Source of the DNA: an uncultured archaeon | Lineage (GTDB): Archaea > Asgardarchaeota > Thorarchaeia > Thorarchaeales > Thorarchaeaceae | Assembly (NCBI GenBank): GCA_964354495.1 | Contig: CAYHAA010000001.1 | Coordinates: forward strand, 645,010-677,009 | Length of the DNA stretch: 32,000 nucleotides | Reading direction: 5' to 3' | Part shown: piece after piece, positions 7,291-23,500 of the stretch | Layout of the letters: the number at the start of each line of letters is the position of its first letter | Position numbering within the stretch: the first letter of the stretch is position 1 | Notes under the pieces: generated by a model | The model's input: only the letters and a program-made list of their open reading frames with translations | Databases searched by the model: none | Told to the model about the DNA's origin: nothing | Position numbers and translations under genes: made by a program

Positions 7291-9332
7291 AATCTCCTCT
7301 GTGCTGACCAGATGTCTTTCCATCTCTGGCTATCCCTGTTTCTTATCTGATGAAGGACTGACATTCTATATGTCTGCGATGACTTGAGTCGTGCGGTGAA
7401 GGAGCGATCAGATGCTTCCTCCATAATGTCACGCAGTATTCCGGCAACATGATCATTCTTCTTCGCGGGTACCTGTATGTGCGCAACTACGTCATTCGAG
7501 TTTCCGACCAACAATCTGACGAAGGGAAGTCGTCCGGTCATATCATCGATGAGAGAGTCTCTTGACCTTCTATCGTAGCAGTTTGCCACCGCCATCAGTC
7601 CATCAGGAAGCCCACAGAATTCTAATGCCGGGAAGTAGACTCGATTCAGCACATGGTCACTTATCATCTGATGAAGCAATCTATTTGCTGTCCGAATCGG
7701 GAAATCTACCTGGTCAAACAACCATTTCCTCTGCGTTTTGGAACCCTCGAATCTCCATAGAATACTGAGAAGCTCCGTCTGCCTCTCTGTCAACGAAAAC
7801 GGTTTGCTATCTATATGCAATGTGGAGTATTGAACGGTTCTCTTCTTATTCTTCTTCTTGGGTGAATCAATGTCTCCAATATTCTCAAGATTCCACTTTC
7901 CAGTTTGCACATTGAAGTAGTCCAAATTCATCGATATGATTTCATCCTCAACGACTGCTTCATGCGATCCTCTAGGTAGAGAAATGACCTCAGGTCCGTT
8001 GGTCAGGAACGGTTCAATATATACAGCGCAGCCACGGATTTTCTGCTCGGTCAAAATCATTCTCTCGACAAGTCCGTCATTGAGTATCTCTGACCTCTGA
8101 AGAGGCGTGAATATGTACCTATAACGAAGTCCAAGTTTTCGAAGCGATGGAATATAACGCTCGTGCAGTAGGTGTTCAAGCTTCTGTAGTGCATAGTAAG
8201 CTGTGCGCCCTCTGAACTGAGATACTTGCTCAAGATCCTTGGCGTTTAGGCTTCTGGAGATATTCCGTTTAGCAAGATTCATGCAAAGCCCTGTAAGAGG
8301 AGCGTATTTCAGCAAGTTGATCTCTCGACGGAATAGTTGCAGGAGCTTCTCATATTCGTTCGCTGCTGGTCCATCAGGTCTGAGCGCCAGGACATCCAAA
8401 CGAGTAGCTGATACAGAACGAACATCGATTTCTTCTTGGAGATGACCGCTAAATCCCTTCAGCATCGCCAGCTCATCAGAGATTTCTCTCCTGAGAGATG
8501 TCCTCAGTTTTTTGCTGTCAGAGTCTCTGGATTCAATTCTCCGATACCAGTCACTTATCTTTCTAGAGAGAGGATTTGGTTGTGCTATAGAGACATCCAG
8601 TTTCGGATCTTGACCAAGGGCTTCATTGATCAGCTCATCAGCTTGTTTCAATCTTGTAGCGAGGTCATCCCAAGAAAACTTGCCAGAATAGACACTTAGT
8701 GCACGGTCGAGGACTTCTATCTTGACCTCTTCCATCATATAGGACCATAGACTGTATAGCCATGGGACGCTCTGGTCAACAATCCGTGAGATGAAGTAGA
8801 CGCTTAGAATTGCGGCTGACAAGGAATCCAAGCCCGGCATCACTGCTGACCAATCTGCTGCACTCGGAACATGCTCTGTGACAATCCTGCTGAGAGCATA
8901 AGAGAAAGAGTTAGCCTCTTCTGACTCCTCTTTCTCCTCTGCCACTTCCGCACCTGTTCCCTCTTCTGTTTCCTCTTCTCCCATCTCTTCTTTAGCCTGT
9001 TTTCCAAAGCTCTTGGGCAACAGTGATTTGACTTGTTCTCTGAGGGTTCCTCCTGTGGGCTTGAGTGGCCTCATTCGAGTTGTTATCTCATCCATAACCT
9101 TTTCATAATTGAGAGGCTTGTTGAGTGACGCTGGCGTAACTGCGGTATCAGGAAGAGGCGACAGATGAAAGGTCTTCTCGAAAAGCGTTTCATCTAATCT
9201 GCCTGAGTCTGTTTTCCAAGAGGATGAGTCCATGATTATGTGCCTAAGTATATTCAGATCAGAAGTCCGCCTGCTTCTTTTCATCCACTCCAAGTAGCTC
9301 TGCTTTTTCTCAGTCAAGCTTGCATACATCAT
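7287..9332 (-). CDS. Large hypothetical protein (681 aa) with Lrp/AsnC-like (wHTH plus alpha/beta) units in the C-terminal half; paralog of 18841-20814
   Basis: YIPSLRKLGLRYRYI resembles the Lrp linker. A second HTH-like start (LTERQTELLSILW) is followed by YFPALEFCGL. An acidic low-complexity stretch lies in the N-terminal part. Domain call is by eye. Confidence 0.7.
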   Translation of the reverse strand: MMYASLTEKKQSYLEWMKRSRRTSDLNILRHIIMDSSSWKTDSGRLDETLFEKTFHLSPLPDTAVTPASLNKPLNYEKVMDEITTRMRPLKPTGGTLREQVKSLLPKSFGKQAKEEMGEEETEEGTGAEVAEEKEESEEANSFSYALSRIVTEHVPSAADWSAVMPGLDSLSAAILSVYFISRIVDQSVPWLYSLWSYMMEEVKIEVLDRALSVYSGKFSWDDLATRLKQADELINEALGQDPKLDVSIAQPNPLSRKISDWYRRIESRDSDSKKLRTSLRREISDELAMLKGFSGHLQEEIDVRSVSATRLDVLALRPDGPAANEYEKLLQLFRREINLLKYAPLTGLCMNLAKRNISRSLNAKDLEQVSQFRGRTAYYALQKLEHLLHERYIPSLRKLGLRYRYIFTPLQRSEILNDGLVERMILTEQKIRGCAVYIEPFLTNGPEVISLPRGSHEAVVEDEIISMNLDYFNVQTGKWNLENIGDIDSPKKKNKKRTVQYSTLHIDSKPFSLTERQTELLSILWRFEGSKTQRKWLFDQVDFPIRTANRLLHQMISDHVLNRVYFPALEFCGLPDGLMAVANCYDRRSRDSLIDDMTGRLPFVRLLVGNSNDVVAHIQVPAKKNDHVAGILRDIMEEASDRSFTARLKSSQTYRMSVLHQIRNRDSQRWKDIWSAQRRF

Positions 9333-9349
9333 CCGTTTTCGTTCTCTGT

Positions 9350-9389
9350 GCCGCTATTGAGAAGTATGTACGCTTTTGTAAATAGCGGC
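9350..9389. promoter_or_regulatory. 9-bp perfect inverted repeat GCCGCTATT-N22-AATAGCGGC in a divergent intergenic region
   Basis: Arms at 9350-9358 and 9381-9389, 18 nt from the start codon at 9332. The repeat is seen directly; function is inferred. Confidence 0.45.
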
Positions 9390-9424
9390 TAATGCTTCTT
9401 TCTGCAATTCTACGTGCTTATTAG

Positions 9425-9446
9425 TGTCAATTCAGACTTATTGACA
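9425..9446. promoter_or_regulatory. Operator-like dyad TGTCAAT-N8-ATTGACA abutting the ATG at 9446
   Basis: Perfect 7-bp arms at 9425-9431 and 9440-9446. Confidence 0.5.
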
Positions 9447-10024
9447 TGAAGCGGAATCAACTTACACTTGTCGCTCGGGATTCAATGGCTTACTTCTCAG
9501 AATCTGCTCTCGCCGATACCTTGACTGAGAGTCTATGGGACACCACCAAGAATCACACGCTGAACATTATCTTGCGTGAGCCTGCCCTCATTGAACTTGC
9601 TAATCGAAGGGATTCCGGCGTCATTCCCTTTTGTGACAACCTGCTTCATTCTGAGGACCAGGAGTGTTGGTTCTCTGCTCTCAAGGCACTAGAGGCTCTG
9701 AACACATATGATGCTGCACAACGACTTCTCATTCTGTGTGGGGATTCTGGGACAAGTGACAGAAGAATAGTCCTGAATGTGTTGGCTCGTGTTCTGACAT
9801 CTTCGCAACGTGAAGGCTTTAGGAGACTCCTACGCTCGGTTCTGGCCCCTGGGGAACTTGACATATCCAGATGGACGCCAACGGCATTGCGTGTTCTTGA
9901 GTCCGTGTGTCACGAACTTGGATTCTCTCTCGAAGATACCACAGGGAAGCTCTATGAAACAAACAGATTTGAAGCCGCAGAAGTGCAGTTTGGTACCTTG
10001 AGAAGAAGCAAGAAACCACTATAG
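9446..10024 (+). CDS. HEAT-repeat-like helical protein (192 aa)
   Basis: LLHSEDQECWFSALKALEAL and DRRIVLNVLARV resemble HEAT/PBS-lyase repeats. Confidence 0.65.
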   Translation: MKRNQLTLVARDSMAYFSESALADTLTESLWDTTKNHTLNIILREPALIELANRRDSGVIPFCDNLLHSEDQECWFSALKALEALNTYDAAQRLLILCGDSGTSDRRIVLNVLARVLTSSQREGFRRLLRSVLAPGELDISRWTPTALRVLESVCHELGFSLEDTTGKLYETNRFEAAEVQFGTLRRSKKPL

Positions 10025-10200
10025 TCCTTCTTGATGCACTCAAAGGCACCATTCTTCTTTTTTGGCTGCAGAAATAAGCCAAAATTGTCTATTTCATGTT
10101 ATACGAGTTGATGTTCGATTTCTTGAGACTTGGACAATGCTTTGAGTCCAAGGCACCTTGTTACAACGTGAGAGAATGATGTACAGCACGTTGGATACGC

Positions 10201-10830
10201 ATGGCCGATTGCTCGTCGAGCAGAGGAGGAATTGCTTTGCAGACTGATCTTCTTACACTGATGACCGCAAACCTACTCTTCTCTGTAAAGATTACTCCAT
10301 TGGTGGTAGTGATTGCCACCCTAATTCGTTCCCTTCTTCTCTTCTCAGGGAACAAGAGAGCTTTCAAGTCTTGGACTAGAAATGCTCTCCTATCAGCTAT
10401 TACCATCGTGTTTCTTCCGGGCAGCATTGTGAACACTGCAGTTCGTTATGTAGTCTGTTCGCTTTTCAGAATTGACTTGAACGGCGTTGGCGCAGGAAGC
10501 ACATATGCTGAGCTCAACCTCTTTCTGAAAGTGGATTCTCCTCCACGTGTGGCTGTTCTCGTTTCTGCCCTCTATGTCAGCACAGTTGCATCCATCTTCA
10601 TTGGGTTCTCACTACTTGTTCTTCCAGTGGTCTTCGTTGCCGGTGCTCCTCTGCAGCTGCTTTGTTGGTACTTGGCACTCGGAGTGCTTTTCAACAGCTC
10701 ACTTCGCGGAGGCGATGTGTCCCTGCTCGGAGCCGCGCTGCATGGTCACCCTGGAAAAGGCATTGCTGAGTTCATTATTGCTGTCATTGTCCTCGCAGTC
10801 TTCTACTCATTTGTGGGGGTCGGAGTATGA
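10201..10830 (+). CDS. Polytopic membrane protein resembling M50-like zinc metalloproteases but lacking HExxH (209 aa)
   Basis: FLPGSIVNTAVRYVVCSLF sits where homologs have PG..HExxH. WYLALGVLFNSSLRGGD sits where homologs have W...S...H..PS..D. Several hydrophobic helices. Confidence 0.6.
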   Translation: MADCSSSRGGIALQTDLLTLMTANLLFSVKITPLVVVIATLIRSLLLFSGNKRAFKSWTRNALLSAITIVFLPGSIVNTAVRYVVCSLFRIDLNGVGAGSTYAELNLFLKVDSPPRVAVLVSALYVSTVASIFIGFSLLVLPVVFVAGAPLQLLCWYLALGVLFNSSLRGGDVSLLGAALHGHPGKGIAEFIIAVIVLAVFYSFVGVGV

Positions 10831-11012
10831 GTCTTGTACAAGACAACCAATCAATCATGTCCCGGGTCGATCCGTTCCCCGACGAACCACACCGTTTTCT
10901 ACCATGCTGGACCTGCAGCTTGATGCAATTCCTGATCCGTCTTTTCCTAGAAGATCGACCCGTTGGACACCCTCTCATCAGCTTAGAAGAATCGGGAGTG
11001 GATATCCTGTGA
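10827..11012 (+). CDS. Putative small protein (61 aa) with CxxC, translationally coupled at both ends
   Basis: ATGA overlap with the upstream stop, TGATG overlap with the downstream start at 11012. Contains CWTC. Confidence 0.4.
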   Translation: MSLVQDNQSIMSRVDPFPDEPHRFLPCWTCSLMQFLIRLFLEDRPVGHPLISLEESGVDIL

Positions 11013-14000
11013 TGAAACAAGCCCTCATCTGCACCTTATTTGTATGCACCATTCTGTTTGCTATTCCGATGACTGCAGTCATAGCTCCAATCGGCGATAC
11101 AGCAGAAGAGCAGTTTAATGTCGAAGAAACTGACTTGAGCGCTGCTGACGCTGGCATCACACGTCCCAGCAATCCTTACATTGTCCTAGAACTCACTTCA
11201 GGTGATGTGCCTGCCCGAGGAGATGCATGGTCTCAGCTGTTGAGTTCCAAAGGAATCCCGAACGTACTACTGAGAACTGAAGATGTTCTATTGAATTCCT
11301 CGGTGATATCGGACACGCCTGCGATTCTTCTTGACGGAAGCCTTGGATCCTACAGCGGAAATCTTGTTTCGCAGTCTCTGATTGATTTGCTCATCCGCCT
11401 AGATACATCTCTGATACTTACTGGACGTTCGGCCTGGTTATTGCACAGATACTCGGGCCGAGGTTCACCCTCTCTGACCGCTCCAGCTGAGACGAAGCTA
11501 CTCGGCTCGTCAACGTACTCTGGAGCGGTCTTCCTCTCACAGCCTGAATCTCTTACTGTTGGCCTGCCTCTGACGTCTGAGAATGGTCTAGTGTTCCCAG
11601 TCGATGAAGCTCAAACTGAGATGTCACTACTCGTGAATCTCACTCGGAGCACAGACTCCTCGACTATAGCTCCTCTCAGACATGATTCTTGGCCGCTAGA
11701 TGTCTTCCTGTTCGCACCTGAGAATCCTGGTTTCCTGACATCGACTGGAGAGGGGCTTCTCGTGAACGTCATCGCATTCTGTACTGCGATACGTGAGTCT
11801 TCTACTGCATCTATTCTATCAGGGTTTCAAACCACGCAGAGTGCTCTTCTTGCAGGAGGAATGAGGTACATGCATGAACCCACGATTTCGTCTACGTATT
11901 TTGCAGTGCATACGATGGAGTCCCTCCTAGTGGGTTCCTCGTGGGAGAACTGGGTGTTGACAAACGCACCTCTGGTTCAAGACATACTCACGAGTCTTCT
12001 TGTAGACTATGGCTCAGAAGCAGGCTTTATGACATCGCAGACAGATACTGTTGTCGACTGCAGAAGCACTGCTCAGGGCCTCTGGCTTGTAAGTGAAATG
12101 AGTCTTACTGTTTCTTTCCCTGTTACTGAGATTGTTGCATACCTAAGTGCCCGACAGAGTTCTGATGGAGGATTCGAGAATTATGTTACCACAACCTTTC
12201 ACGTCACCGAATCACTTTGGGCTTCAGGGTGGCTTTCCAGCATCGATTCAAACCAGCTGGAGATTTGGTTAAGGTCTCTGGTCATTGATGGCGCAAAGAC
12301 CTCCAATCCTGATCTCTGGGGTGCAATAGGTTCGAATCCCACTAGTACCTCACCGTTGAGCAACTATGCAACAGAGTATCTGAGGTCTCTGTTCTTCCTC
12401 GGAAGAGCTCACGCAGACCCGTCAAAGTTGACAAGCTGGATTCTGACTAGAACCTCAAATGGCGACGGCTCATTCAGGAACTCAATAGGTCTTGATGAGG
12501 AGGTCGTCACTGGTACGGCTTCGGCCTTGACAAGCATGCAGATACTCGGTACTCTGAATGGGCTGAACAGGACCTCTGGGCTAAGCTGGCTCACTGATAA
12601 TCAACTTGCATCAGGTGGTTTCGGTTTGAAGACTGCCACATCTGACCTTGTTGGCAAGACGCGCGAAACCTCTCGAGTGGCAGCCTGTCTTAAGATGCTC
12701 GGAGAAACCTCAGGACCTCTTGTGACTGGAGCCGTAGCTTATGTCTATTCAATCACTACTGATGTTGGGTTCGAGCCTATGGACCCACTGCCATCGCTTA
12801 TGTGGACAAGCTGGCTTCTCGAGACGGGTAGGCTGATACATGCTTCCCAGAGCGTCGACCTTGACCTCGCCCGAAACTACATCTCCTGTTATGACGGACC
12901 ATCTACGCTCACTGTCTATCCGTTCTGGGAGAATCTCACTACCATGAGCTCACCTGAGTATGGCATGAACCAGTATAGAACAAAGAGTGTCTGGATACAG
13001 TACTTTGGAGTTTCTGCAGCTCGTTCTCTTGGCATAGAACCTGCGCCGAGTGTTGCTTCAGACATCGTCCTCTATCTCTCCCAGACTCAATACGCCACTG
13101 GACATTACCGACCAACGCCGCTCACAGGCACAGCTCACATGCAGCACTCAGTGGCTGCTGTAGAAACTCTCTATATCTTAAATGAGCTTGACACAATCCT
13201 CTATAGAGAGGCCTTGGAAACAGCCATTCTCTCGATGTATAGCGCTGGTTCGTGGAATACTGCTGGGTGGACTCTCAAACCATTCGCTGGCTCTCAACAC
13301 GCCATCGACTATCTGTCGACATGTGCTGCCATTCGATTGGGAATCGTTACTCCTGCCATGGCCGCTGAGATAGCAGCCTGCATAGACGCTCGTCTACAGT
13401 ACTCTGATCTCTTGGCATTGAGCTGGGATGTTGCTACGTTGTCTCTCTTGCAGACTTCAGCCTTCTCCGCAGGGCTTGAGTCCGTGGACACATCACTTGT
13501 GCTTGATGCCCTGAAGTCATCTCATTTTGTTGATGGATGGTTCAATGCAACCAGACTCTGGCAACCTGTCTTGACAATGAGTGTGCTCAAGATGGTGTCC
13601 ATTCTGGGGCTTCGATGTCTTCTTGATGACATTCCTGGTTCTTCATTCACTGCTAGCGCCAGTCCGACAGCAGAACTTGGGACTGTGCTTGATATCTCCA
13701 TAAGTATAGCCTCCTCGTCAGAAACTCACTCTGTCATAGTCAGAGCACTCGACATATCACTATTGTTCAATAATGTAGGAAACAACGACACGCTGCAGCT
13801 ACCGATACCTGCAAACAGAGAATGTCTTGGTCCCTGGAGCATTTCGTTGATGATTTCCGATTGGGGCTCTTCTCGTGCCTTTGGTGCATTAGAGATTGTC
13901 CTCGAAGGAACGTTACAGGGTTCTGCAGCGTTGACGACTCCAGCTGTGAAAATGGGCGCATTCATAAACGGAACTATTCTGTGGACACTCTCAAACGGCT

Positions 14001-17000
14001 TAGACGCTGGTCCTGCTCATACAACAATTCGCCTAGGCAATCCACCAACGTATCGCCAATGGAGCTATGATACACCTTCCCCCTTCGTATTCTCAGTGCC
14101 CACTTCCGACTTTGATGCTGGTATCTATTCGCTCACGGTCACGGTGGAGGTGCCATACTGTGTATCCCTCATACTCAGCGAAGAGGTAGTGATTGCAGAG
14201 CCGAATCCAACCTACATGAGCGCTCCGACAAGCTCTGATGGTCAGGTGGGCAACGAACTCCGCATAGAATGGTCATTACATTGCGTTGAGGACAACACCC
14301 TGATTGGAAGCCAGGCGGTGAGCTTGGTCATCAGAGACAATGCTAATTCAATTGTATTCACTGATGCGCTGATTTCCAGTACCAGCGGCAATGTGTTTCT
14401 CTGGATTCCAGAAGTGAGGGGCGACTTTACGTTCCAGCTGCTCTTTGATGGGAATGGCACTTTGGATAGTAGCCAAGTGGAAGGGAGTATTCGTGTCTAT
14501 GAGGAAACCGTTCTTTCTTGGATGGGTGGAGGCACGATGAATCAGTATTCAACTGTGAACCTCTCAGTCCTTCTGCAGACCTCGCAAGGAGCGGCTCTCA
14601 GTGGGCAGGCAATACAAGTACTCGTCCAAGCTCCTTCGTCAGTCACTGTTATAGATAGTTGGTGTGTCACGAATTCAACAGGATATGCTACGATTCTGTT
14701 TTCATTATCACAGAATGGTGTCTATCTGCTCCAGGCTCAATACCCTGCAAGCAGTTTTCTCCAAGGCTCTAGTGCCTCAGAATCTCTGACCTCATGGTCA
14801 TCAAGCTCTCTAGTACTGGGTGGAATCGAATCTGAGGTGACGATTGGTGGTACTTTTCAGCTACGGGCACAGCTTGATGATCTTGTACTGAATCCTGTGC
14901 CTGGACAGCCCGTTCTTCTGCGAATAACGTTCCTGCCATCCACAGTCCTTGTGGAGCAGACACTCACGTCGGACTCGGGTGGCTACGTGTTTGTTGAATG
15001 GACAGCAGGCTCAGCAGGTACCTATAGATTTGAGGCGATCTATAGTGGAACGATATCGAGAGCCTCCTCTACCGAGAACATTGATTTTCAAGTTCTCATT
15101 CCTGTTGCACTCACTCTCACTACTGCCACATCATCTGAGACAGGCTCTGAAGAATCAATACTCGTAGTGACAGTTGATCATCTTGGTAATCCTATCTCCG
15201 GCATCTCTATCTCATTGATTGTGCGTGGGCCCGGAGGCACAACTCTGTACACGAATCAGTCCTCCACAACGGGTGGCTCTGTCACATTTCTGTGGGCACC
15301 ATCCCAGAGAGGAGTGAATGAAATCACCGTGGTTTCGGCGCGACAGACTTGGTATCACGAAGCATCATCTTCAGTCACGGTGAATGTGTACGAGACTCCT
15401 GCTATTGATGTTGAGATTCCGTTGGATGCCATTGCACCAACAAGTGATACAATCGAGATTTTCATCTTCGACCATGAGAGTCAACCAGTGCAAGGAGTCA
15501 CTATTCGAGTTCAGATTAAGCTGAATGCAACGACAATAGTCGATGGCAATTTCGTGACAGATGGCAACGGGCTTGTCAGTATCACAGTGAATCTTGACAT
15601 TCCAGGTTTCCTTCAAGCCGAGACTACGCTCTTGCCTCAGGGATGGTTCCTCGAGGCTACTGCAAGTTCGAACAGTGTAGTATCGTCTGCCACAACTCTC
15701 CTGATCATAATCCCTGGCCAACCCGTGCAACAAAGCTCGACAGTTGGAATATCATTTTCTCTTAGCGACTTCTCAGGTGCTCCCTTGGCCGCATCAATGA
15801 TTCAGATTGAAATTGCCTGGGGTAACGGAACAGTCATTCGGTCTGTTACTCGTGTGACTGATAGCACAGGCCATTGTGCTCTTGCACAAACCTTCAATTC
15901 TGTCGGAGACTTTGTCATTCGTGGTTCATACAGTGGCTATGGCTCAAACTCTTCTGCTACTCATGCTGTTGCACAGCGTGTGTTCGTCACGCCATTGATT
16001 GATGTAGCTCATGAACCAAGCTGCATTTCTGGAGAAGCCATGGAGTTCATTGTCAATCTCACCGATGCCCTTGGCAACAACATCATGGGAAGGACAGTGC
16101 AACTGAGCATTGAACAGGGAGGATCAATTGTCTTCGAGGCCCAGTTTCTGTCGGGCGCGGGTCCATCAACAATCACTTGGTATCCGACTCAGGGAGGTAT
16201 TGCTACAATCACAGTAGTCCATCTTGGGAATATGTACTACCTCACAACATCGATGGACACAGCAGTATCCATCATGGAACTCGTCAGCGGCTCTATCGTT
16301 CTATTGCCATGTGAGATTGACATATTCGATTCAGCAGTTCTTGTTTACATTCTCGAAACCGCTATTCCGAGAAGCGGCGTTATAATCCGTTTTGAAGTAC
16401 TTGGAATGGACTTGGTTCCTGTGTGGACAGCTGATCGTCTGACAAACGCTTCAGGTATGGCATCAGTTATCTACACCGCGACAGAAACGCATGGAGTCCT
16501 TCACGTGAATGCAGGCCCTATCGCTGATGAGTTCCTGATTGGCGGCGACGTCCGAGAGCAACTCATTGTCAAGACGTTCTGCAACATCACAGCATCTCTG
16601 CAGCCAACACCGCCGCGCGTGAACACTCTCACTAATATCACAGTTCATGTAATAGACGACCTGGGCGGAACTATCGACGGTCCAACAGTCACTGTAAGTC
16701 TGTACAATCCCTACGGAGAGATTGTGAAGCTAGGCCTCTGGACTAATTCTGAAACAGTCCCTATTGAGAACGGCTTGGCTGTTGTGGACTTCGTACCCAC
16801 AATGGCAGGTCTATATACTGTAGTTTCGAGCTCGTCAGGTTCAACCACAGTTCATGGATTCAGCGGTACGACTCAACACACGGTCTATTCTGTGACCCAG
16901 CTCGTGCTGATTGCATCTGCATACGAGCTCGAGGTGGGACAGACACTAGATGTTATGGCAAGACTTCTTGATCACAATAGTATGCCGCTTGTGGGGAGAA

Positions 17001-18838
17001 ACATTACCCTATACCTTGATGGTCTAGGTACTGGTTCCTTAGGTCCCATTGTACCGGCTACGAACTCGACTGGTTATGTGTCGTGGAGTGTCACGATTGA
17101 TGATGAAGGAGTCTGGGTTTTGACTGCGTCTTTCGGTGGGTTGGGTGTGTATCTTCCTGCAAGCACTGATGCTGCGATCAATGTCAGATACGGGACGGTG
17201 ATTAGCCTCTCGCTCGAGACCTCTGGCGATATTGTTGCAGGCGAAACAATAGCATCGTTTTCCATCCTGTTGGCAGATTCAGGAGGAACGCCACTTGAGG
17301 GCTTCACGGTTCATTATGAGGTCCATGAAGAGAATCTTGGGCTTGTTGTCCAAGGGAGCATAATTCAGACTGACACTGATGTGATTATTCTGAATCTTAC
17401 CATCGAGCAAATGGGCATCTATGCAATCCTTGTTTCCTTCAGTGGAACGAATCACTATCACGCATCAAACGCCGGGATTCAGTTCCTGGTTCTCGGCACT
17501 ACCAATGCTGTATCACCAATTTCAGAGCGCATCGATAGATCAACGGAGAATGCAACTCGGATTGTGATAGAGGATGAGGTTTCCGTGCCGATTCCTCCGG
17601 CCGAACTTGATGTCACAATTGAGCTCCATGGTCCGGATGGACTGGTTGACCTCTCAGGTCGCCTTGTGTGGAATGAGTCTTGGGTGGACTTCTACATCTA
17701 TGGACTCCCTACCGGCGATTATGTCCTCGGCGTCACCGTGCTAGCAGCAGACATGCGCCAAGGATGCAGCGCTCAATTCGATTTTGCCATCACTAGTACT
17801 GCGTGTCTCGCTGTTTCTGAAGAAACCCTCCCTGGACTGATTTCTAAACCTCATTCTCTAACTTTCGTCTTGATGGACTCTTTGGAGGAGGTTGTGGACG
17901 CAGTTGATGTCTGGGTGAGTCTGTATGATCCACTCGGCCGTGAGATCTATGGGCATCCACTTTCGACGCGAACACTGCTTCATTCCTCTCTCATGGGAAC
18001 TGAGGTCTCTTGGACTCCGACTCTTATTGGTGAGTATCGCCTCGTTCTTGTCTTCGAGGGTGATGACTTCTTCGATGCAACATCGCTAGAGGTCATTGTT
18101 CTGGTACTTCATGAGAGCTCGATAACTCTGGCTGCACCATCCCAGTCCGAATTCGGCGAGATGATACCTGTATCCTTAACACTGCAGGGCGCCCTCGGAG
18201 GTATCTCAGGAGTCACAGTCATACTGACAGTGTCAATGGAGGGAGAAATCGAACAGCAGCTATCTCTTGTCACAGGAAGTCGTGGCATCGTAAGCACCAA
18301 TCTTGTAGGTCTCTTGGCAGGGTCTCATGCTATCGTAGTGGCATTCTCGGGCTCTGCCACGCAGGCTTCGTGCATAGGAAATATGACTGTAGTCGTTGTT
18401 CCTGTTTTTGTGATTGCGCTTGATTCAAGGGGTGACCTCTTTGTGGGACACAACTGTAGTGTTGATGTTTCGGTGAGCATCCTTGGGCTGTCCTCTGCCT
18501 GGAATGGATCTCTTGAAGCTGTTCTCTTCGACACCGCTCGCTCTAGGGTCGACACATGGAATATTGAGATAGGTCCATACTCGCTCTTTGTCATCGATTT
18601 CCTGCCTCTCGCTGAAGGCGCCTATTCGCTGAATGTCACCATCACAGGCTTGCCTATCATTGCAGAGAGGGTTCTTCCGATGGCGATTGCGATAGTGCGC
18701 GAGACACTAACACTGCAGTTGGATCCACAGACCACACCAATGTTTGGCGGGCTAGGCATCCTCGCTATTGTGGGGTTGGTCATTAGGAAGAAAATGAAGA
18801 GCATGCTCGAGTCGATGCCAGGAGAATGGAGAGAATAA
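11012..18838 (+). CDS. Giant cell-surface protein (~2608 aa): signal peptide, prenyltransferase/squalene-cyclase-like repeat domain, ~14 Ig-like repeats, C-terminal membrane anchor
   Basis: Start re-called at ATG 11012 (GGAGTG upstream; MKQALICTLFVCTILFAIPMTAVIA signal-like), not 10547. QW-like motifs YLSARQSSDGGF, WILTRTSNGDGSF, WLTDNQLASGGFG, YLSQTQYATGHY. Recurrent L.D..G.P..G..V and T(N/D)..G patterns. TM PMFGGLGILAIVGLVI followed by RKKMK. Confidence 0.85.
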   Translation: MKQALICTLFVCTILFAIPMTAVIAPIGDTAEEQFNVEETDLSAADAGITRPSNPYIVLELTSGDVPARGDAWSQLLSSKGIPNVLLRTEDVLLNSSVISDTPAILLDGSLGSYSGNLVSQSLIDLLIRLDTSLILTGRSAWLLHRYSGRGSPSLTAPAETKLLGSSTYSGAVFLSQPESLTVGLPLTSENGLVFPVDEAQTEMSLLVNLTRSTDSSTIAPLRHDSWPLDVFLFAPENPGFLTSTGEGLLVNVIAFCTAIRESSTASILSGFQTTQSALLAGGMRYMHEPTISSTYFAVHTMESLLVGSSWENWVLTNAPLVQDILTSLLVDYGSEAGFMTSQTDTVVDCRSTAQGLWLVSEMSLTVSFPVTEIVAYLSARQSSDGGFENYVTTTFHVTESLWASGWLSSIDSNQLEIWLRSLVIDGAKTSNPDLWGAIGSNPTSTSPLSNYATEYLRSLFFLGRAHADPSKLTSWILTRTSNGDGSFRNSIGLDEEVVTGTASALTSMQILGTLNGLNRTSGLSWLTDNQLASGGFGLKTATSDLVGKTRETSRVAACLKMLGETSGPLVTGAVAYVYSITTDVGFEPMDPLPSLMWTSWLLETGRLIHASQSVDLDLARNYISCYDGPSTLTVYPFWENLTTMSSPEYGMNQYRTKSVWIQYFGVSAARSLGIEPAPSVASDIVLYLSQTQYATGHYRPTPLTGTAHMQHSVAAVETLYILNELDTILYREALETAILSMYSAGSWNTAGWTLKPFAGSQHAIDYLSTCAAIRLGIVTPAMAAEIAACIDARLQYSDLLALSWDVATLSLLQTSAFSAGLESVDTSLVLDALKSSHFVDGWFNATRLWQPVLTMSVLKMVSILGLRCLLDDIPGSSFTASASPTAELGTVLDISISIASSSETHSVIVRALDISLLFNNVGNNDTLQLPIPANRECLGPWSISLMISDWGSSRAFGALEIVLEGTLQGSAALTTPAVKMGAFINGTILWTLSNGLDAGPAHTTIRLGNPPTYRQWSYDTPSPFVFSVPTSDFDAGIYSLTVTVEVPYCVSLILSEEVVIAEPNPTYMSAPTSSDGQVGNELRIEWSLHCVEDNTLIGSQAVSLVIRDNANSIVFTDALISSTSGNVFLWIPEVRGDFTFQLLFDGNGTLDSSQVEGSIRVYEETVLSWMGGGTMNQYSTVNLSVLLQTSQGAALSGQAIQVLVQAPSSVTVIDSWCVTNSTGYATILFSLSQNGVYLLQAQYPASSFLQGSSASESLTSWSSSSLVLGGIESEVTIGGTFQLRAQLDDLVLNPVPGQPVLLRITFLPSTVLVEQTLTSDSGGYVFVEWTAGSAGTYRFEAIYSGTISRASSTENIDFQVLIPVALTLTTATSSETGSEESILVVTVDHLGNPISGISISLIVRGPGGTTLYTNQSSTTGGSVTFLWAPSQRGVNEITVVSARQTWYHEASSSVTVNVYETPAIDVEIPLDAIAPTSDTIEIFIFDHESQPVQGVTIRVQIKLNATTIVDGNFVTDGNGLVSITVNLDIPGFLQAETTLLPQGWFLEATASSNSVVSSATTLLIIIPGQPVQQSSTVGISFSLSDFSGAPLAASMIQIEIAWGNGTVIRSVTRVTDSTGHCALAQTFNSVGDFVIRGSYSGYGSNSSATHAVAQRVFVTPLIDVAHEPSCISGEAMEFIVNLTDALGNNIMGRTVQLSIEQGGSIVFEAQFLSGAGPSTITWYPTQGGIATITVVHLGNMYYLTTSMDTAVSIMELVSGSIVLLPCEIDIFDSAVLVYILETAIPRSGVIIRFEVLGMDLVPVWTADRLTNASGMASVIYTATETHGVLHVNAGPIADEFLIGGDVREQLIVKTFCNITASLQPTPPRVNTLTNITVHVIDDLGGTIDGPTVTVSLYNPYGEIVKLGLWTNSETVPIENGLAVVDFVPTMAGLYTVVSSSSGSTTVHGFSGTTQHTVYSVTQLVLIASAYELEVGQTLDVMARLLDHNSMPLVGRNITLYLDGLGTGSLGPIVPATNSTGYVSWSVTIDDEGVWVLTASFGGLGVYLPASTDAAINVRYGTVISLSLETSGDIVAGETIASFSILLADSGGTPLEGFTVHYEVHEENLGLVVQGSIIQTDTDVIILNLTIEQMGIYAILVSFSGTNHYHASNAGIQFLVLGTTNAVSPISERIDRSTENATRIVIEDEVSVPIPPAELDVTIELHGPDGLVDLSGRLVWNESWVDFYIYGLPTGDYVLGVTVLAADMRQGCSAQFDFAITSTACLAVSEETLPGLISKPHSLTFVLMDSLEEVVDAVDVWVSLYDPLGREIYGHPLSTRTLLHSSLMGTEVSWTPTLIGEYRLVLVFEGDDFFDATSLEVIVLVLHESSITLAAPSQSEFGEMIPVSLTLQGALGGISGVTVILTVSMEGEIEQQLSLVTGSRGIVSTNLVGLLAGSHAIVVAFSGSATQASCIGNMTVVVVPVFVIALDSRGDLFVGHNCSVDVSVSILGLSSAWNGSLEAVLFDTARSRVDTWNIEIGPYSLFVIDFLPLAEGAYSLNVTITGLPIIAERVLPMAIAIVRETLTLQLDPQTTPMFGGLGILAIVGLVIRKKMKSMLESMPGEWRE

Positions 18839-18840
18839 TC

Positions 18841-20814
18841 TCAGGACCTGATTTGATTGAGAAAACCAGTTATATCATCATCCCAAGTCCCATCAGGTAG
18901 CAATAGCCTTTGATAGAGGTTGTTAACATATCCTGCGTAAGCAGAGACTCTGTAACCCTTGATGACGACATCATGCTCACTGGCCTTTCTAGGGAGGTCA
19001 ACGAGAATATCATACGCCCTCTTCTCCGGCACCCTTGCCATGACTACACAAAGATTGCTGCTTTCAGAAACCATGGCTGTCGTGGTTGGAAGGTGCATCA
19101 ATGTGGATCTCGCAATTGAATAGAGTTGAGGAATCTCACCCCTTATTTCAAGGCAAATCGAAGCGAGTCCATAGATAGTAGGGAAGTACTGCAAGTTCGC
19201 TATCTTTGCCTGTATAAATGAAGCCAGCTTTTCTTTCAATGACTCCTTGCTCATATTTAGAATGCCATCATATTCGCTGAGCTCCAGCGACTGGTTGTAT
19301 ATTCCCCATGATATCAGATCCAGCACCCTTGCATCTTCATCTGATAGTACACTTATTTCTCCGCAGCTTGTCAGGTCAAATTGCCGGTTCATTTGCTTGA
19401 ATGTTCTTCTACCATTCAACGAACTCTGCAAGCGGACAGTGTTGTTCTTCCAAGTTTCATGTCTTGGTGAATACAATCCGTAGTTCAATCTTGACGCGCT
19501 CCAGTCAATTGAAGCAATATTCTGTCTTGTACGCATGATTCTGTCAACAGCTGTCTTTGGCATTACAAGGACCTGAATATGCGGAGGCTTCTGACCAGGA
19601 TTTCCAAGTCTGGCTGTATACTGAAGGTGCTTGTGCGGCCACCTGTGTGCTCCTCCAATGTAAACGAGTTTGGCCAATCCAAGTCTTTCATCTTGCACAT
19701 ACCCTCTCATGATGAGGTTGCTTCTAATCAGCGAAAAACGGTCAAGCCATGCTTCCTTTGATTTCTTAGCCTCTTCTCTTGATATTGGGATACCCGTGTG
19801 TACTTCTTGCCTCAGATTAAGAGAATGAGCCAGACCAATTACCCTTGCTTTGCGATCAGGAAATGTTTCTGATATCCTATACCATGTAATACTCCAAGGA
19901 TCATTTTCGGTCTCTTCTGTCCTTGGTCCAAGGTCAGACTCGGGCCCGCCTCGATTAACAAGTGCCATTATTCGTACATACTGGGGCGGTGGTGTTCCTT
20001 GTATTAGACATTGAGTGTGCCCAAACACAAGGTTGGATAGGATTGCTCCTGACGGAAAGCTTTGGTTGACTCTTGCCAGAAAGTCTAGAGGGTCTTCTGT
20101 GGGAGGCTCCAGTTTAGTTGTCCATGCAAGAAACGCTATCAATTCCTGCCTGATTCTCTCAGAGAAGACCTTTGGCACCAGCTGATTCACCGTTTCACCC
20201 ATTGTTCTCTTACGTTCGAGTTCGGGTATGTCTACACCTTCCACGAGCTTTCCCAGGCTTGACCAAGATGGTGCCGGTTTGTCCAATAGGTCCGCTAATG
20301 ACACATCTGTCAAAGCCCGTTTTTGGCTCGCGAACAGCCTATTATACAGCTCCCAATCAGATTCCTGTTGGAGGATCGAGACTTCAAAACCGTTTATTGG
20401 GTGAAATCGGACCAGATTGCCCGTGGAATTCTCTAGGACACTCAGGAGATACCGTGAGTCCTTCCTGACTTTTTGAATTGCCAGAGTTGCATCTATTCCC
20501 TCAGGCGATAGATATGTTATCCATCTGTTGGTGCTTGGGGGATAGAGATCATCTTGACCGACTGATTCTCGTCTGTGCTTCCTCTTGAATATAGATGCAG
20601 CGAACTCAACTCGATCATCAGGTGTCAATGATATTGACCGACACAGAGCTTCATCCGTTATTGAGAAATCGATGTTGCTGTCGGACAACTCCATCTCGGA
20701 ATTATCTGCATTCAGTAGCTTCGGCCCTTCTCTCGTGTAACATAGATTACTCGGAATTACTCTGCCGCTTGATAGGAATACCCTAACAGGAAGCCTCATG
20801 AGGTCTGCATCCAT
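18841..20814 (-). CDS. Large hypothetical protein (657 aa) with Lrp/AsnC-like C-terminal half; paralog of 7287-9332
   Basis: GYVQDERLGLAKLVYI, LSDEDARVLDLISW, LQYFPTIYGL and HLPTTTAMVSESSNLCVVMARVP occur in the same order as matching blocks of the 681-aa protein. Confidence 0.7.
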   Translation of the reverse strand: MDADLMRLPVRVFLSSGRVIPSNLCYTREGPKLLNADNSEMELSDSNIDFSITDEALCRSISLTPDDRVEFAASIFKRKHRRESVGQDDLYPPSTNRWITYLSPEGIDATLAIQKVRKDSRYLLSVLENSTGNLVRFHPINGFEVSILQQESDWELYNRLFASQKRALTDVSLADLLDKPAPSWSSLGKLVEGVDIPELERKRTMGETVNQLVPKVFSERIRQELIAFLAWTTKLEPPTEDPLDFLARVNQSFPSGAILSNLVFGHTQCLIQGTPPPQYVRIMALVNRGGPESDLGPRTEETENDPWSITWYRISETFPDRKARVIGLAHSLNLRQEVHTGIPISREEAKKSKEAWLDRFSLIRSNLIMRGYVQDERLGLAKLVYIGGAHRWPHKHLQYTARLGNPGQKPPHIQVLVMPKTAVDRIMRTRQNIASIDWSASRLNYGLYSPRHETWKNNTVRLQSSLNGRRTFKQMNRQFDLTSCGEISVLSDEDARVLDLISWGIYNQSLELSEYDGILNMSKESLKEKLASFIQAKIANLQYFPTIYGLASICLEIRGEIPQLYSIARSTLMHLPTTTAMVSESSNLCVVMARVPEKRAYDILVDLPRKASEHDVVIKGYRVSAYAGYVNNLYQRLLLPDGTWDDDITGFLNQIRS

Positions 20815-20932
20815 CTGTGTTCAGGGAGTATAGGTAGTGTATTTGTAGTATTTGTTCTCGTCTTGATAGTCCATATAACAATGAGAAAGATGCAATGAGA
20901 TACTTCTATACTACCTGGGAAACTGGGAATTT

Positions 20933-20977
20933 GAGGGCCTTGCGAATCCTAAACAAATCTTCGGATCCCAGGCCCTC
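20933..20977 (-). other. Stem-loop between the repeat-peptide ORF and the 657-aa gene
   Basis: GAGGGCCT (20933-20940) and AGGCCCTC (20970-20977) are perfect 8-bp arms. On the - strand the stem extends inward via GGGAUCC/GGAUUC with bulges. Confidence 0.5.
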
Positions 20978-20986
20978 TTGTTCTCT

Positions 20987-21109
20987 CTACCAGGGTTCTG
21001 GAGGTTTGTCGGTCGGTGTATTGCAGGTGACTGCGACATAGCTCCAAGGCTCTGGAGGTTTGTCTGTGGGTGTACCAGCGTATCTTTGGTAGTTGTGTTT
21101 GTTGATCAT
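20987..21109 (-). CDS. Small peptide MINKHNYQRYAGTPTDKPPEPWSYVAVTCNTPTDKPPEPW (40 aa) with a duplicated 10-aa unit; not in ORF track
   Basis: Manual translation from ATG 21109 to TAG 20989-20987. The two 30-nt copies (21044-21073, 20990-21019) differ at 4 positions, all third-codon and synonymous in this frame. Confidence 0.65.
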   Translation of the reverse strand: MINKHNYQRYAGTPTDKPPEPWSYVAVTCNTPTDKPPEPW

Positions 21110-21316
21110 TGCGTTCACGAAATTCCATGACGCACCCTACGCCTCAGATTCCTATGGAAATCATACGCACATTGAGACTCGTCTTTTGCTTCTAAACAAG
21201 TCAAAACTCACATCAATTCCTCCAGGAGATTGGTGAGTATATTAGGCAAAGGAGTGTACAGATATTTTCAGATATTTCTATCTAGAAGATGATAGCAGAT
21301 ATTCATTGATTGGATG

Positions 21317-21326
21317 AAAAAAAAAA
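21317..21326 (-). terminator. Oligo-T (T10) tract downstream of tfb, candidate archaeal terminator
   Basis: A10 on the + strand, about 150 nt past the tfb stop at 21473. Confidence 0.5.
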
Positions 21327-21472
21327 CACTGGCACTCGTTCTAGTGGGAGGATGTCCACAATTGACTTGCCAGGCTGCTTGCGTTCTCTACGAAGGAGAG
21401 AACCAATTCACCATTATAATGAACTTGAGAACAGAATGAGATGGCTGCATCTTCCTGCAGCCCTCTCTGATT

Positions 21473-22453
21473 CTATGCAGTCAGTGCCAGAGCCTCAGGC
21501 AGTATCGTCAGACGCAATTTCGCCACGAGTTCCTTGTACCTGTTGCGAATCGTGACCTCAGTGACACCACTCACTTGCGAGATATCATGTTGTGTGACCC
21601 TGCAATCATGCATGATTGCTGCCACATAGATAGCAGCTGCTGCAAGGCCTCTTGGGTCTCGACCTGTCACAAGACCGCGGACTTCCTTTGCCTTCTCGAG
21701 GATTTCCATGGTGGTGTGCTGCACCTCTGTGGGTAGATCAAGTTCTGAGATGAACCTAGGAACGTACATGGCCGGGCTCGAGATTGGCATCCTGAGCTTC
21801 AGCTTTGTCACAAGCATTCGATAGTGTGCAGAGATCTTTTTCTTCGACTCCCTTGAATGCTCGGCTATCTCTTCAATCGAACGGGGCGAGCCCCGATGCC
21901 TGCAGGCAGCATAAACAGCTGCTGCAGCGGTTGCATCAATGCTTCGGCTTCGCCAGAGTCTTCCCGCAATGAGTTTCCGATACATACGTGCTGCCTCATC
22001 TTTCAAGCTCTGCGACATACCTAGTTGCGATGATAACCGATCAATCTCAGTCATGGCCTGAGCCAAATTCCTATCAAGCGAGCTGTGTACTCGGGTTCGA
22101 ATCTGCCACTTGCGAAGCCGGTAGATCTGTGCTCTCTGTTTTGCACTGAAAGCCACTCCCTTTCCATCTCTGTCACGCCAGTCAATGGTCGTGCTTAGCC
22201 CTTTATCGTGAATCGAAGCGCTCTCGGGCGCGCCAGTCCTTGAGCGAGAGTCTTGTTCATCTGACGTGAATGCACGCCACTCAGGACCTGAGTCTATACG
22301 GTGGTCGCTGAGCACTAACCCGCACTTTGCACAGATCAATTCTCCCTTCTCATTATCCCTGACAACCTCTACTCCCCCACACTCGGGGCATGAGGCGTTC
22401 AGGGTTTCTACTTCTCCTAGTCCCTCTCTTTTATCTAATGAATTGCTTGCCAT
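21473..22453 (-). CDS. tfb: Transcription initiation factor IIB (TFB), copy 2 (326 aa)
   Basis: Zn ribbon CPECGG...CAKCG, B-reader GPEWRAF, HDKGLST, RLRKWQ, two cyclin repeats, TEVTIRNRYKEL. Confidence 0.97.
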   Translation of the reverse strand: MASNSLDKREGLGEVETLNASCPECGGVEVVRDNEKGELICAKCGLVLSDHRIDSGPEWRAFTSDEQDSRSRTGAPESASIHDKGLSTTIDWRDRDGKGVAFSAKQRAQIYRLRKWQIRTRVHSSLDRNLAQAMTEIDRLSSQLGMSQSLKDEAARMYRKLIAGRLWRSRSIDATAAAAVYAACRHRGSPRSIEEIAEHSRESKKKISAHYRMLVTKLKLRMPISSPAMYVPRFISELDLPTEVQHTTMEILEKAKEVRGLVTGRDPRGLAAAAIYVAAIMHDCRVTQHDISQVSGVTEVTIRNRYKELVAKLRLTILPEALALTA

Positions 22454-22540
22454 TCTTGCACTTTTCCCTCCAACTACCCGGATTGACCTGAGGGTCCGGG
22501 AGCCCTCGATCTTAGTTACGATTCTTCCTCTCAGTCTGTG

Positions 22541-23500
22541 TTACGGTGCCATTGTGATGCTAAGTTTCTGAACGAGTTCCTTGTATCGATTCCTCACGGT
22601 GACCTCAGTCACGCCTGCCGCCATGGCAATATCGCGCTGAGTCACACGGTGATCCGTGAGAATGCTTGCTATGTAGATGGCAGCAGCCGCTAGACCTCGT
22701 GGATCTCTCCCAGTCACGAGAGTCCTGTTTTCCTTGGCTTGTTCTAGGATTTCGATGACTTTCTGTTGCACGATACCTGGTAGATCGAGCTCTGTGACGA
22801 AGCGTGGCACATAGTTCGCCGGATCTGAGATGGGCATCTTCAGACTCAGTTTTTCCACTAGTAGTCTGTAGTGCTGTCCAATCTTCTTTCGGCTCACTCG
22901 TGAGTGTCTCGCTATCTCCTCAAGAGAACGTGGTGCATTTCTCAGTCTGCATGCGGCGTATATTGATGCTCCGACCATTGCATCGATTGATCTGCTACGA
23001 GCAAGTCGTCGAACAATCAGTTTTCTGTACAGTAGTGCAGCAAGTTCCTTGATACTCTTATTGAGTCCCAGCTGTGAGGACAGTCGGTCAAGCTCAGACA
23101 TTGCCTGGGCAAGATTTCTGTCGACCGAGCTATGAACTCTAGTTCGTATCTGCCATTTACGAAGACGATAGATCTCTGAGCGCTTCTTCGCCGAGAATCG
23201 CTTTCCCTGCGAGTCATGGTCGCGCCAGTCGATCATGGTGCTGAGACCCTTGTCGTGTATCGCGTAGTTCGTTGGGGCGCCAGCTCGTGAGCGAGCGTCC
23301 TTCTCATCGCTCGTGAAAGCTCTCCATTCAGGTCCTGAGTCTATCCGATGCTCTGAAACGACCAGACCGCACGATGCACAGATTCGTTCTCCCTTCTCAA
23401 GGTCTTGTACTGCCTCCTTACCTCCACATTCGGGGCAAGTGAAGCCAGTATCTCCTCTAGAAGACCGTTCTGGTTGTTTTCTTTCACTGCGCGATGACAT
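22541..23500 (-). CDS. tfb: Transcription initiation factor IIB (TFB), copy 1 (319 aa)
   Basis: Zn ribbon CPECGG...CASCG, GPEWRAF, HDKGLST, RLRKWQ, two cyclin repeats, TEVTVRNRYKEL. Confidence 0.97.
   Translation of the reverse strand: MSSRSERKQPERSSRGDTGFTCPECGGKEAVQDLEKGERICASCGLVVSEHRIDSGPEWRAFTSDEKDARSRAGAPTNYAIHDKGLSTMIDWRDHDSQGKRFSAKKRSEIYRLRKWQIRTRVHSSVDRNLAQAMSELDRLSSQLGLNKSIKELAALLYRKLIVRRLARSRSIDAMVGASIYAACRLRNAPRSLEEIARHSRVSRKKIGQHYRLLVEKLSLKMPISDPANYVPRFVTELDLPGIVQQKVIEILEQAKENRTLVTGRDPRGLAAAAIYIASILTDHRVTQRDIAMAAGVTEVTVRNRYKELVQKLSITMAP

Follow-up and report, generated by a model that had tools for sequence, protein, structure and literature searches.

The stretch of DNA that was analysed (the window) is 32,000 nucleotides (nt) long and comes from an uncultured archaeon of the Thorarchaeaceae. 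A very small open reading frame (ORF) is present on its minus strand at 20987..21109, upstream of a gene for a protein of 657 amino acids (aa) at 18841..20814 on the same strand. The micro-ORF starts with an ATG at 21109-21107 and stops with a TAG at 20989-20987. It encodes 40 aa plus the stop, arranged as MINKHNYQRYAG-[unit]-SYVAVTCN-[unit]-stop. Unit 1 (21073-21044) and unit 2 (21019-20990), each of 30 nt on the minus strand, are in phase at a spacing of 54 nt and encode the same decapeptide, TPTDKPPEPW; the TAG follows directly after the second Trp. All four nucleotide differences between the two units are synonymous and are found at third positions. When up to 3 mismatches were allowed, the 30-nt unit pattern was found at only 2 sites in the window and at none in 100 shuffles, and the unit pair occurs once in the whole 3.3-Mb genome. 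An alternative GTG start at 21118 would give 43 aa; the orthologues begin at the ATG instead. The original prediction, made from the letters of the window, had described this ORF with its two identical units and its synonymous differences, and both re-reading and comparison bear it out. The gap to the 657-aa gene, given there as 173 nt, measures 172 nt.

Comparison with related loci indicates that the 40-codon frame is a real, translated and mostly unannotated micro-gene. In the closest relative (G012), whose neighbouring protein is 75% identical, this frame is likewise open, its start and stop are unchanged, and it too encodes 40 aa. The two units in this relative, VPTGRPPEPW, are identical to each other and differ from those of the window at 3 positions. 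Between these orthologues the proportion of non-synonymous differences (pN) is 0.13 and the proportion of synonymous differences (pS) is 0.68; across comparisons, the frame has pN values of 0.13-0.26 and pS values of 0.54-0.95. None of the other five frames at the locus has a synonymous excess. These include a 59-aa frame that competes with the micro-ORF, for which the values against the closest orthologue are pN 0.23 and pS 0.31. Contigs from related strains contain 7 variants inside the ORF. All 7 are at third codon positions; 6 of them are silent, and the other turns Ile2 into Met, which also occurs at that position in orthologues. The strain variants of the flanking spacer have no codon periodicity.

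The frame, its start and its end are kept in about 60 loci and the nucleotide sequence is not. Purifying selection on the peptide and a preference for the 40-aa over the 59-aa frame had both been proposed, and both agree with these data; the 59-aa frame has no signal of purifying selection. A nucleotide repeat kept without its frame, or a conserved 59-aa frame, had been named as what would speak against the peptide. The opposite was found. The label "hidden" that had been given to the peptide is fair, because a collection of 15 billion predicted proteins lacks 5 of 6 peptides queried. Archaeal annotation overlooks most micro-genes of 12-40 codons, and here a whole family of them can be demonstrated as coding from comparative evidence alone. 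The sequencing runs in which the locus was found are DNA datasets and one oligo-dT soil RNA library, in which its share is small. The library contains one 373-nt contig of a related strain (~95% identical) that covers 20724-21099. No transcript start, end or strand can be read from this contig, it is possibly DNA carry-over, and it was not used as proof of transcription.

The micro-ORFs belong to a family of proline-rich peptides of 12-57 aa with Pro-Trp, usually Glu-Pro-Trp, at the C-terminus or 2 residues before it. The 657-aa protein belongs to a family of its own (~650-680 aa). This family is present in 70 of the 76 genomes of one Thorarchaeota family, in 16 genera, and essentially nowhere else among the 301 genomes sampled. 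The public homologues are all listed as "hypothetical protein" of Thorarchaeota. Genomes of the genus carry two paralogues each, ~30% identical to each other, and the loci are accordingly called group 1, to which the window's locus belongs, and group 2. The sole match outside the home family, near-full-length and high-scoring, is on contig C292 of genome G290 (family f5). This copy is probably mis-binned because the contig is short and the genome has 8% contamination.

The pairing of the two genes is strict through both paralogue groups and many genera. Among group-1 loci with usable upstream sequence, a micro-ORF with a Pro-Trp ending was found in 27 of 27 (19 genome and 8 metagenome loci). 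It is on the same strand, 115-220 nt upstream of the partner gene, and the pairing persists down to 28% identity of the partner protein. All 23 group-2 loci also have a micro-ORF, with the unit M-x-P-x(6-9)-E-P-W. It has 12-17 codons in 22 of these loci, and genome G001 has a 47-aa version with two units. The unit is followed by the stop in 14 of the group-2 loci and by two extra residues in 9. In other genera, about 12 of 20 fetched upstream regions carry a micro-ORF, with endings that include DGPW, DTPW and DEPF. The remaining 8 showed no Pro-Trp micro-ORF; their coordinates are approximate, so this is not evidence of absence. In the 3.3-Mb genome of the window, 12 frames in total end in EPW and a stop when all six frames are read. 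The 2 of micro-ORF size with a family gene downstream are the ones upstream of exactly the genome's two family members, and thus the association cannot be due to chance. Linkage of the peptide to the downstream regulator-like gene, which had been put forward from the window, is borne out by the orthologous loci. Full-text literature searches found no description of such a peptide, family or cassette.

The peptides vary in form. Group-1 peptides have two units with a hydrophobic spacer, as in the window, two units with a tail that ends in a third Pro-Trp, or a single unit in which a Ser-Pro-Phe motif replaces the first Glu-Pro-Trp. Group-2 peptides have essentially one unit, and 2, 3 or 4 units are found in others. 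Each paralogue group has a peptide type of its own. Pro-Trp (mostly Glu-Pro-Trp) is the only constant part. Position 4 of the unit varies between D and G and position 5 among K, R, W and V; form-B peptides have another residue in place of Thr3, and Pro-Pro is absent from many orthologues. It appears that the functional entity is a unit of ~10-14 residues that ends in Pro-Trp.

Thirteen peptides contain repeated units, and these stem from at least three independent duplications: that of the group-1 form-A/B peptides, that of a four-unit A-B-A-B peptide in another genus, and that of the two-unit group-2 peptide of G001. The four-unit micro-ORF (L076, 544-717, genome G080) encodes 57 aa with Pro-Trp-ended units; between its two A units there are silent differences, and no others, in 7 of 9 codons. 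Eleven of the 13 peptides have repeated units with the same amino-acid sequence. The nucleotide differences in these peptides sum to 58 synonymous and 0 non-synonymous (41 in eight genomes, 3 in L059, 7 and 2 in the four-unit peptide, and 5 in the G001 group-2 peptide), a sum in which the counts are not phylogenetically independent and the picking of identical pairs fixes the non-synonymous number at zero. The meaningful form of the result is that 11 of 13 repeat-bearing peptides have no amino-acid differences between units despite 2-7 silent differences per repeated pair. At synonymous sites the units of one peptide are as far apart (pS ~0.7) as orthologues from different species are, and between species up to half of the positions of the unit differ.

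In two sister pairs, one member has Asp and its sister Gly at position 4 of the unit, each time in both units. The synonymous codons that flank this position on both sides are specific to each unit and common to the sisters, and the sister pairs are backed by 76 tree-supporting columns against 2 and 10. This is the pattern predicted by parallel substitution under selection for identical units; very short conversion tracts are another possible source of it. For most repeats, identity appears to be held largely by selection, since their synonymous divergence is nearly saturated. Units that stay identical in protein across such divergence, after at least three independent duplications, are an unusual pattern.

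The partner protein has no match in Pfam at E <= 0.01, none in NCBIfam at E <= 1 and no sequence match in PDB at E <= 1. The Lrp/AsnC profiles PF13404, PF13412 and PF01037 do not match it. A language-model atlas gave sub-threshold leads only, to HTH_24/AsnC clusters. An AlphaFold2 model built from 18 family members (mean pLDDT 84) has a beta-rich domain, a helical region and tandem Lrp/AsnC-like modules, each with a winged helix-turn-helix (wHTH) and a RAM domain. Residues ~280-656 superpose on tandem Lrp/AsnC-type modules in Foldseek. The best solved match is the fused siroheme decarboxylase NirDL (4ch7; E 2.5e-5, probability 1.0). Entries annotated as Lrp/AsnC in AFDB match at E 8e-14 to 1e-5, and Sulfolobus ST1022 matches with a probability of 0.82. 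The model supports a tandem Lrp/AsnC (NirDL-like) fold for the partner at the fold level only, and it is at this level that the earlier label "Lrp-like" agrees with the matches. The N-terminal 300 aa have no recognised fold. When modelled alone (pLDDT 79), this part reached a best Z of 4.9 against 48,161 PDB representatives and had no AFDB match outside its own family. Trp392, His394 and His396, which form a W-P-H-x-H loop in the first RAM-like domain, are invariant. RAM domains of Lrp/AsnC proteins are ligand sensors that bind amino acids, aromatic ones in some members.

A putative distant Lrp-like paralogue of 681 aa is encoded in the window (7287-9332, minus strand) and has no Pfam or NCBIfam match. 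It has no Pro-Trp micro-ORF within 500 nt upstream, and it was not detected by tblastn with the 657-aa protein.

Both genes of the cassette have putative promoters. A candidate operator region lies at 21259..21302 on the minus strand, upstream of the micro-gene's TATA-like box. It contains three ATATCTG direct repeats (21302-21296, 21275-21269 and 21265-21259) and the palindrome CTATC-N8-GATAG (21295-21278). Together these are possibly an operator; G012 keeps the first copy as ATATCT(G/A) and the palindrome, and the other two repeats are not kept. The TATA-like box CCTAATATAC (21237..21246, minus strand) precedes the ATG by ~135 nt. In 6 close relatives no other upstream block is strongly conserved, and a comparable A/T box at a similar distance was found in 21 more distant loci. 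Both paralogue groups have the box, and in nearly all loci it is ~135 nt from the ATG. If transcription starts where this box suggests, the predicted 5' leader is ~105 nt long (21110..21215, minus strand). Long 5' leaders are unusual in archaea. The length of this one is nearly constant in ~40 loci of both groups, and it has short conserved blocks, such as AGCA and TTTCTC(A/G)C. Rfam gave no match at E <= 1 for 20700-21500, and RNAalifold gave no consensus structure for 21 leaders, the alignment of which was poor. A Shine-Dalgarno-like GTGA, a type of site that pairs with the 3' end of 16S rRNA, is present at 21115..21118 on the minus strand, 5 nt before the ATG. Either GTGA or GGTAA is found 5-10 nt before the ATG of the micro-ORF in both paralogue groups.

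A terminator-like stem-loop (20933..20977, minus strand) begins 9 nt after the stop codon, with a folding energy (dG) of -22.8 kcal/mol. A stem-loop follows the stop in 23 of 23 loci, with dG values of -11 to -26 kcal/mol, a mean z of -3.5 and unrelated stem sequences. Its distance from the stop is 2-40 nt in group 1 and roughly 30-70 nt in group 2. A T-run of at least 5 is present behind it in 16 of the 23 loci; the window's own T-tract is weak (longest run 3). The ORF had been placed between a T10 tract and a hairpin, and the hairpin is the part of that description that stands. The T10 tract (21326-21317) is ~208 nt upstream of the ATG. Since the TATA-like box of the micro-gene lies downstream of it, the tract more probably marks the end of the preceding gene, which encodes a TFB.

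The 657-aa gene has a TATA-like box of its own, TACAAATAC (20839..20847, minus strand), ~29 nt before its ATG. Most group-1 orthologues have the block GATA(C/A)A(A/T)ATAG 24-35 nt before the partner start. A leaderless or near-leaderless partner mRNA with its own promoter is implied for group 1. In group 2 the box is TTCTAAAA, ~45-50 nt before the ATG, together with a GGAGA, GGGGA or GGTGA site. The micro-gene looks like a transcription unit of its own that stands before an independently promoted partner.

The reading that is favoured here, tentatively and with somewhat less than even confidence, is that the micro-gene encodes a trans-acting peptide. It would be recognised through its unit by the adjacent Lrp/AsnC-like protein, as the cognate ligand of that protein. 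The cassette suggests an undescribed peptide-and-receptor pair. This reading is favoured because it accounts for selection on the whole unit, the strict pairing, the Pro-Trp anchor with variable residues around it, the one to four identical units and the separate promoters. The peptide may act in one piece, or it may first be cut behind the aromatic residue to give identical pieces that end in Pro-Trp. It may do so within the cell, or it may be exported and then sensed. Most simply, it would occupy the RAM-type ligand site of the partner and change the partner's activity as a regulator. The variable residues of the unit would set the specificity of the pair, with Pro-Trp as a common anchor. 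Such specificity would be needed because each genome carries two paralogous pairs. Multiple identical units could give several identical ligands after cleavage, or they could allow multivalent binding to an oligomer. Three functions were offered for the peptide in the original prediction. The one that best fits the evidence is that of a ligand for the downstream protein; the binding itself we infer. Co-folding of the 657-aa protein with the peptide gave a score of 0.29 against a mark of 0.32, which counts neither for nor against binding.

Several observations weigh against this reading. The promoters and the terminator are sequence predictions. The contig from the RNA library spans the stem-loop into the 657-aa gene, which fits read-through if the contig is RNA. 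Two multi-unit peptides, L033 and L060, have units that have diverged from each other. The units of L059 have 21 identical nucleotides in common, which means that DNA-level homogenisation occurs as well and that conversion or re-duplication explains part of the unit identity. No co-variation signal was found between the peptide and the protein, where 2 partner columns track the D/G switch of the unit and 10 track a control pattern. The peptides have no signal sequence, hydrophobic N-terminus or transmembrane segment. Export, if there is any, would therefore need a dedicated route, and none was seen at the locus. The partner need not be a regulator, since the Lrp/AsnC fold that its model resembles is also found in an enzyme, the siroheme decarboxylase NirDL/AhbAB. 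Finally, synteny with a convergent gene for a giant surface protein is conserved equally well.

If the peptide is the ligand of its neighbour, Asgard archaea would gain a genetically encoded peptide-receptor pair, a kind of regulation that has been documented mainly in Firmicutes and their phages. The Lrp/AsnC fold would gain a peptide ligand. A peptide family is in any case tied here to a lineage-specific protein of a ligand-sensing fold. A bolder version of the reading, which is unlikely, is that the micro-gene is a multi-copy precursor of identical proline-rich, Pro-Trp-ended peptides. These would be sensed by lineage- and paralogue-specific Lrp/AsnC-type receptors, with pherotype-like specificity groups, as peptide signalling in Asgard archaea. 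Archaea would then have their first described cassette for peptide-based signalling or quorum sensing, and the repeats would be a clear example of identity that is kept by selection on the product and not by homogenisation of the DNA.

The nearest functional analogues are probably the RRNPP-type cassettes of Firmicutes and phages, such as Rgg/SHP, ComR/ComS, PlcR/PapR, Rap/Phr and AimR/AimP. There, as here, a tiny and often unannotated ORF stands beside the gene of a cytoplasmic protein of the helix-turn-helix (HTH) type. The informative part of the peptide is C-terminal, its sequence varies by lineage while the pairing is kept, paralogous pairs occur in one genome, and the peptide gene has its own promoter. 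However, neither component is homologous to its RRNPP counterpart and the host is an archaeon. The partner has a predicted Lrp/AsnC-like fold and an N-terminal half of no recognised fold in place of tetratricopeptide repeats (TPR), of which Pfam finds none. The peptide has neither a signal sequence nor the hydrophobic character of SHP, and its identical units number up to four. The locus has no conserved exporter or Opp-like genes. For the present cassette, secretion, processing, re-import and binding are all hypothetical. The cassette may work like the RRNPP systems at most. It is not a member, to judge from the comparison, because the receptor fold is different and no component is homologous. 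It would be a peptide gene with its cognate protein, made of unrelated components and found in a different domain of life, with a function that we infer.

The Lrp/AsnC (feast/famine) regulators and the fused NirDL/AhbAB proteins are the comparison for the partner. Its C-terminal ~340 residues superpose on their tandem wHTH and RAM domains with a Foldseek probability of 1.0. It differs from them in having no sequence-profile match and an extra N-terminal part of ~300 residues. Amino acids or tetrapyrroles are the ligands known for this fold family; a peptide encoded by a gene is not among them.

The strongest of the alternatives is still improbable. The micro-gene could encode a precursor of the kind that gives rise to cofactors or to ribosomally synthesised and post-translationally modified peptides (RiPPs). 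The Pro-Trp units would serve as cores or substrates, to be modified (at Glu/Trp or the C-terminus, for example) and then released. The neighbour would be a recognition or modifying component, through its wHTH domains or an AhbAB/NirDL-like site, and peptides with several units would be multi-core precursors. Such a precursor covers the same five observations almost as well as the ligand reading. Copy number varies from 1 to 4 with identical units, and the constant residues are at the C-terminal end, as they are in PqqA and MftA. The precursor-like gene has a strong-looking promoter of its own and a stem-loop ahead of the next gene. Among solved structures the partner matches an enzyme best, NirDL, and the W-P-H-x-H loop of the partner is invariant. 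Genes of carboxyl-methyltransferase families (leucine carboxyl methyltransferase, LCM, and PEMT/ICMT-like) are beside the cassette in some relatives.

However, these methyltransferase genes are absent from the locus in this genome, and no recognised maturase, protease or exporter is present in the window or conserved at the locus. The original prediction had seen no maturase in the window, and the scan agrees: no ATP-grasp, radical SAM, YcaO, lanthipeptide or peptidase domain was found in the scanned ORFs of at least 100 aa. No ATP-grasp or other maturase genes were found in the conserved flanks either. Pfam gave no match to PqqD or to a RiPP recognition element (RRE). Residues of the graspetide type are not conserved. 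A graspetide-like peptide had been the first function offered for the ORF, and it is not supported, with D or G at position 4 and K, R, W or V at position 5, where the cross-links had been proposed. Several genera have another residue even in place of the Glu that precedes Pro-Trp (DGPW, DTPW, LPW). Multi-copy precursors such as yeast alpha-factor, cyanobactin and other multi-core RiPP precursors, and animal neuropeptide precursors also have several identical or near-identical short units in one product. Their copy number depends on the lineage and their units are more conserved than the spacers. These precursors are secretory or have known maturases, whereas no processing enzyme is recognised here. 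The identity of their repeats is usually ascribed to unequal crossing-over or conversion.

A cis-acting leader peptide is quite unlikely. Ribosome stalling at the Pro or Trp codons, or termination, would decide between a stop at the stem-loop and T-tract and read-through, or would occlude the promoter of the partner. The ORF is directly upstream of the partner gene, co-oriented and at a fairly constant distance, with a terminator-like stem-loop in 23 of 23 loci. The group-2 ORFs, at 12-17 codons, are as small as classical leader peptides, and the constant residues adjoin the stop in most loci. The contig from the RNA library reaches from the ORF into the beginning of the 657-aa gene, which is weak evidence because the contig may be DNA. 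Attenuator leaders and arrest peptides (trpL, tnaC, speFL, ermCL and eukaryotic peptide-dependent upstream ORFs) resemble the micro-ORFs in their 12-40 codons, their upstream and co-oriented position, the constant residues at or near the stop, and the stem-loop and T-tract that follow.

This mechanism is disfavoured because the micro-gene and the partner each have their own TATA-like box. The box between the stem-loop and the partner gene is conserved in both groups, at the distance expected for a leaderless or short-leader mRNA, and there is no such separate box in the known attenuators. The stem-loop is mostly beyond the footprint of a terminating ribosome. The motif is not always at the stop, with two residues after EPW in 9 of the 23 group-2 loci. 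Selection here is on the whole unit and on identity between units, and a stall motif would leave both the identity within a peptide and the variation between species unexplained. No antiterminator pairing was found, in an analysis that included no systematic search for alternative pairings. Stalling at Pro-Pro, sensed by aIF5A, had been the second function offered. It fits poorly, because Pro-Pro is not conserved and only Pro-Trp is constant, and the stem-loop, the T-tract and the separate TATA-like box stand between the two ORFs.

It is distinctly improbable that the product is a stand-alone small protein or a linear-motif peptide with a target other than its neighbour. The target could be a eukaryote-like domain that binds proline or aromatic motifs, with the peptide as its polyproline-II ligand, or it could be the giant surface protein. 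In that case nothing more than shared regulation or ancestry would link the micro-gene to the 657-aa gene. The peptides are proline-rich, and their repeated [E/S]-P-[W/F] motifs are like the short linear motifs DPW, DPF and NPF. The synteny with the surface protein is kept even where the 657-aa protein is only 28-34% identical. However, each paralogue group has its own peptide type, and the pairing persists in group 2, where the cassette is in a different, housekeeping neighbourhood without the surface protein. The last alternative, a direct DNA repeat (a protein-binding site or a mobile-element remnant) or an RNA element that is open by chance, would suit two intergenic copies about five helical turns apart and the 5 of 6 peptides missing from predicted proteins, but it is effectively refuted by the codon-position pattern, with copies least alike exactly at third positions in every genome, with frame, start and stop conserved where nucleotides are not, and with single-unit orthologues that have no repeat at all.

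The gene for the giant surface protein is at 10547-18838 on the plus strand, convergent to the 657-aa gene and almost abutting it. Proteins of this type have ~2,600-2,760 aa and resemble alpha-2-macroglobulin, with a prenyltransferase-like alpha-alpha toroid, MG2/MG4, Big_1 and filamin repeats. The gene is syntenic in 15 of 21 loci (among them L031, L032, L033, L055, L057 and L059), including those of the most distant orthologues (28-34% identity). At one group-2 locus (L058; genome G000, contig C24), two genes for M24-family metallopeptidases are present 1.7 kb downstream of the cassette (8770-10642, minus strand). This family includes Met-aminopeptidases and X-Pro peptidases, and all group-2 peptides start with M-x-P; this is possibly a coincidence.

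Directly upstream of the cassette, two tandem paralogous genes for TFB (TFIIB-like) proteins are found at 21473-23500 on the minus strand. They mark the genome as archaeal, and its relatives carry the label Candidatus Thorarchaeota. Such a pair also precedes the cassette in L032, L033, L057 and L059. Between the TFB genes and the micro-gene, a PF04072 gene and a gene for a PEMT/ICMT-like membrane methyltransferase are present in L032 (4120-5532), in L033 and L034 (4100-5425) and on the P0009 contig. The PF04072 (leucine carboxyl methyltransferase) and PEMT/ICMT-like families both include methyltransferases that act on C-terminal carboxyl groups.

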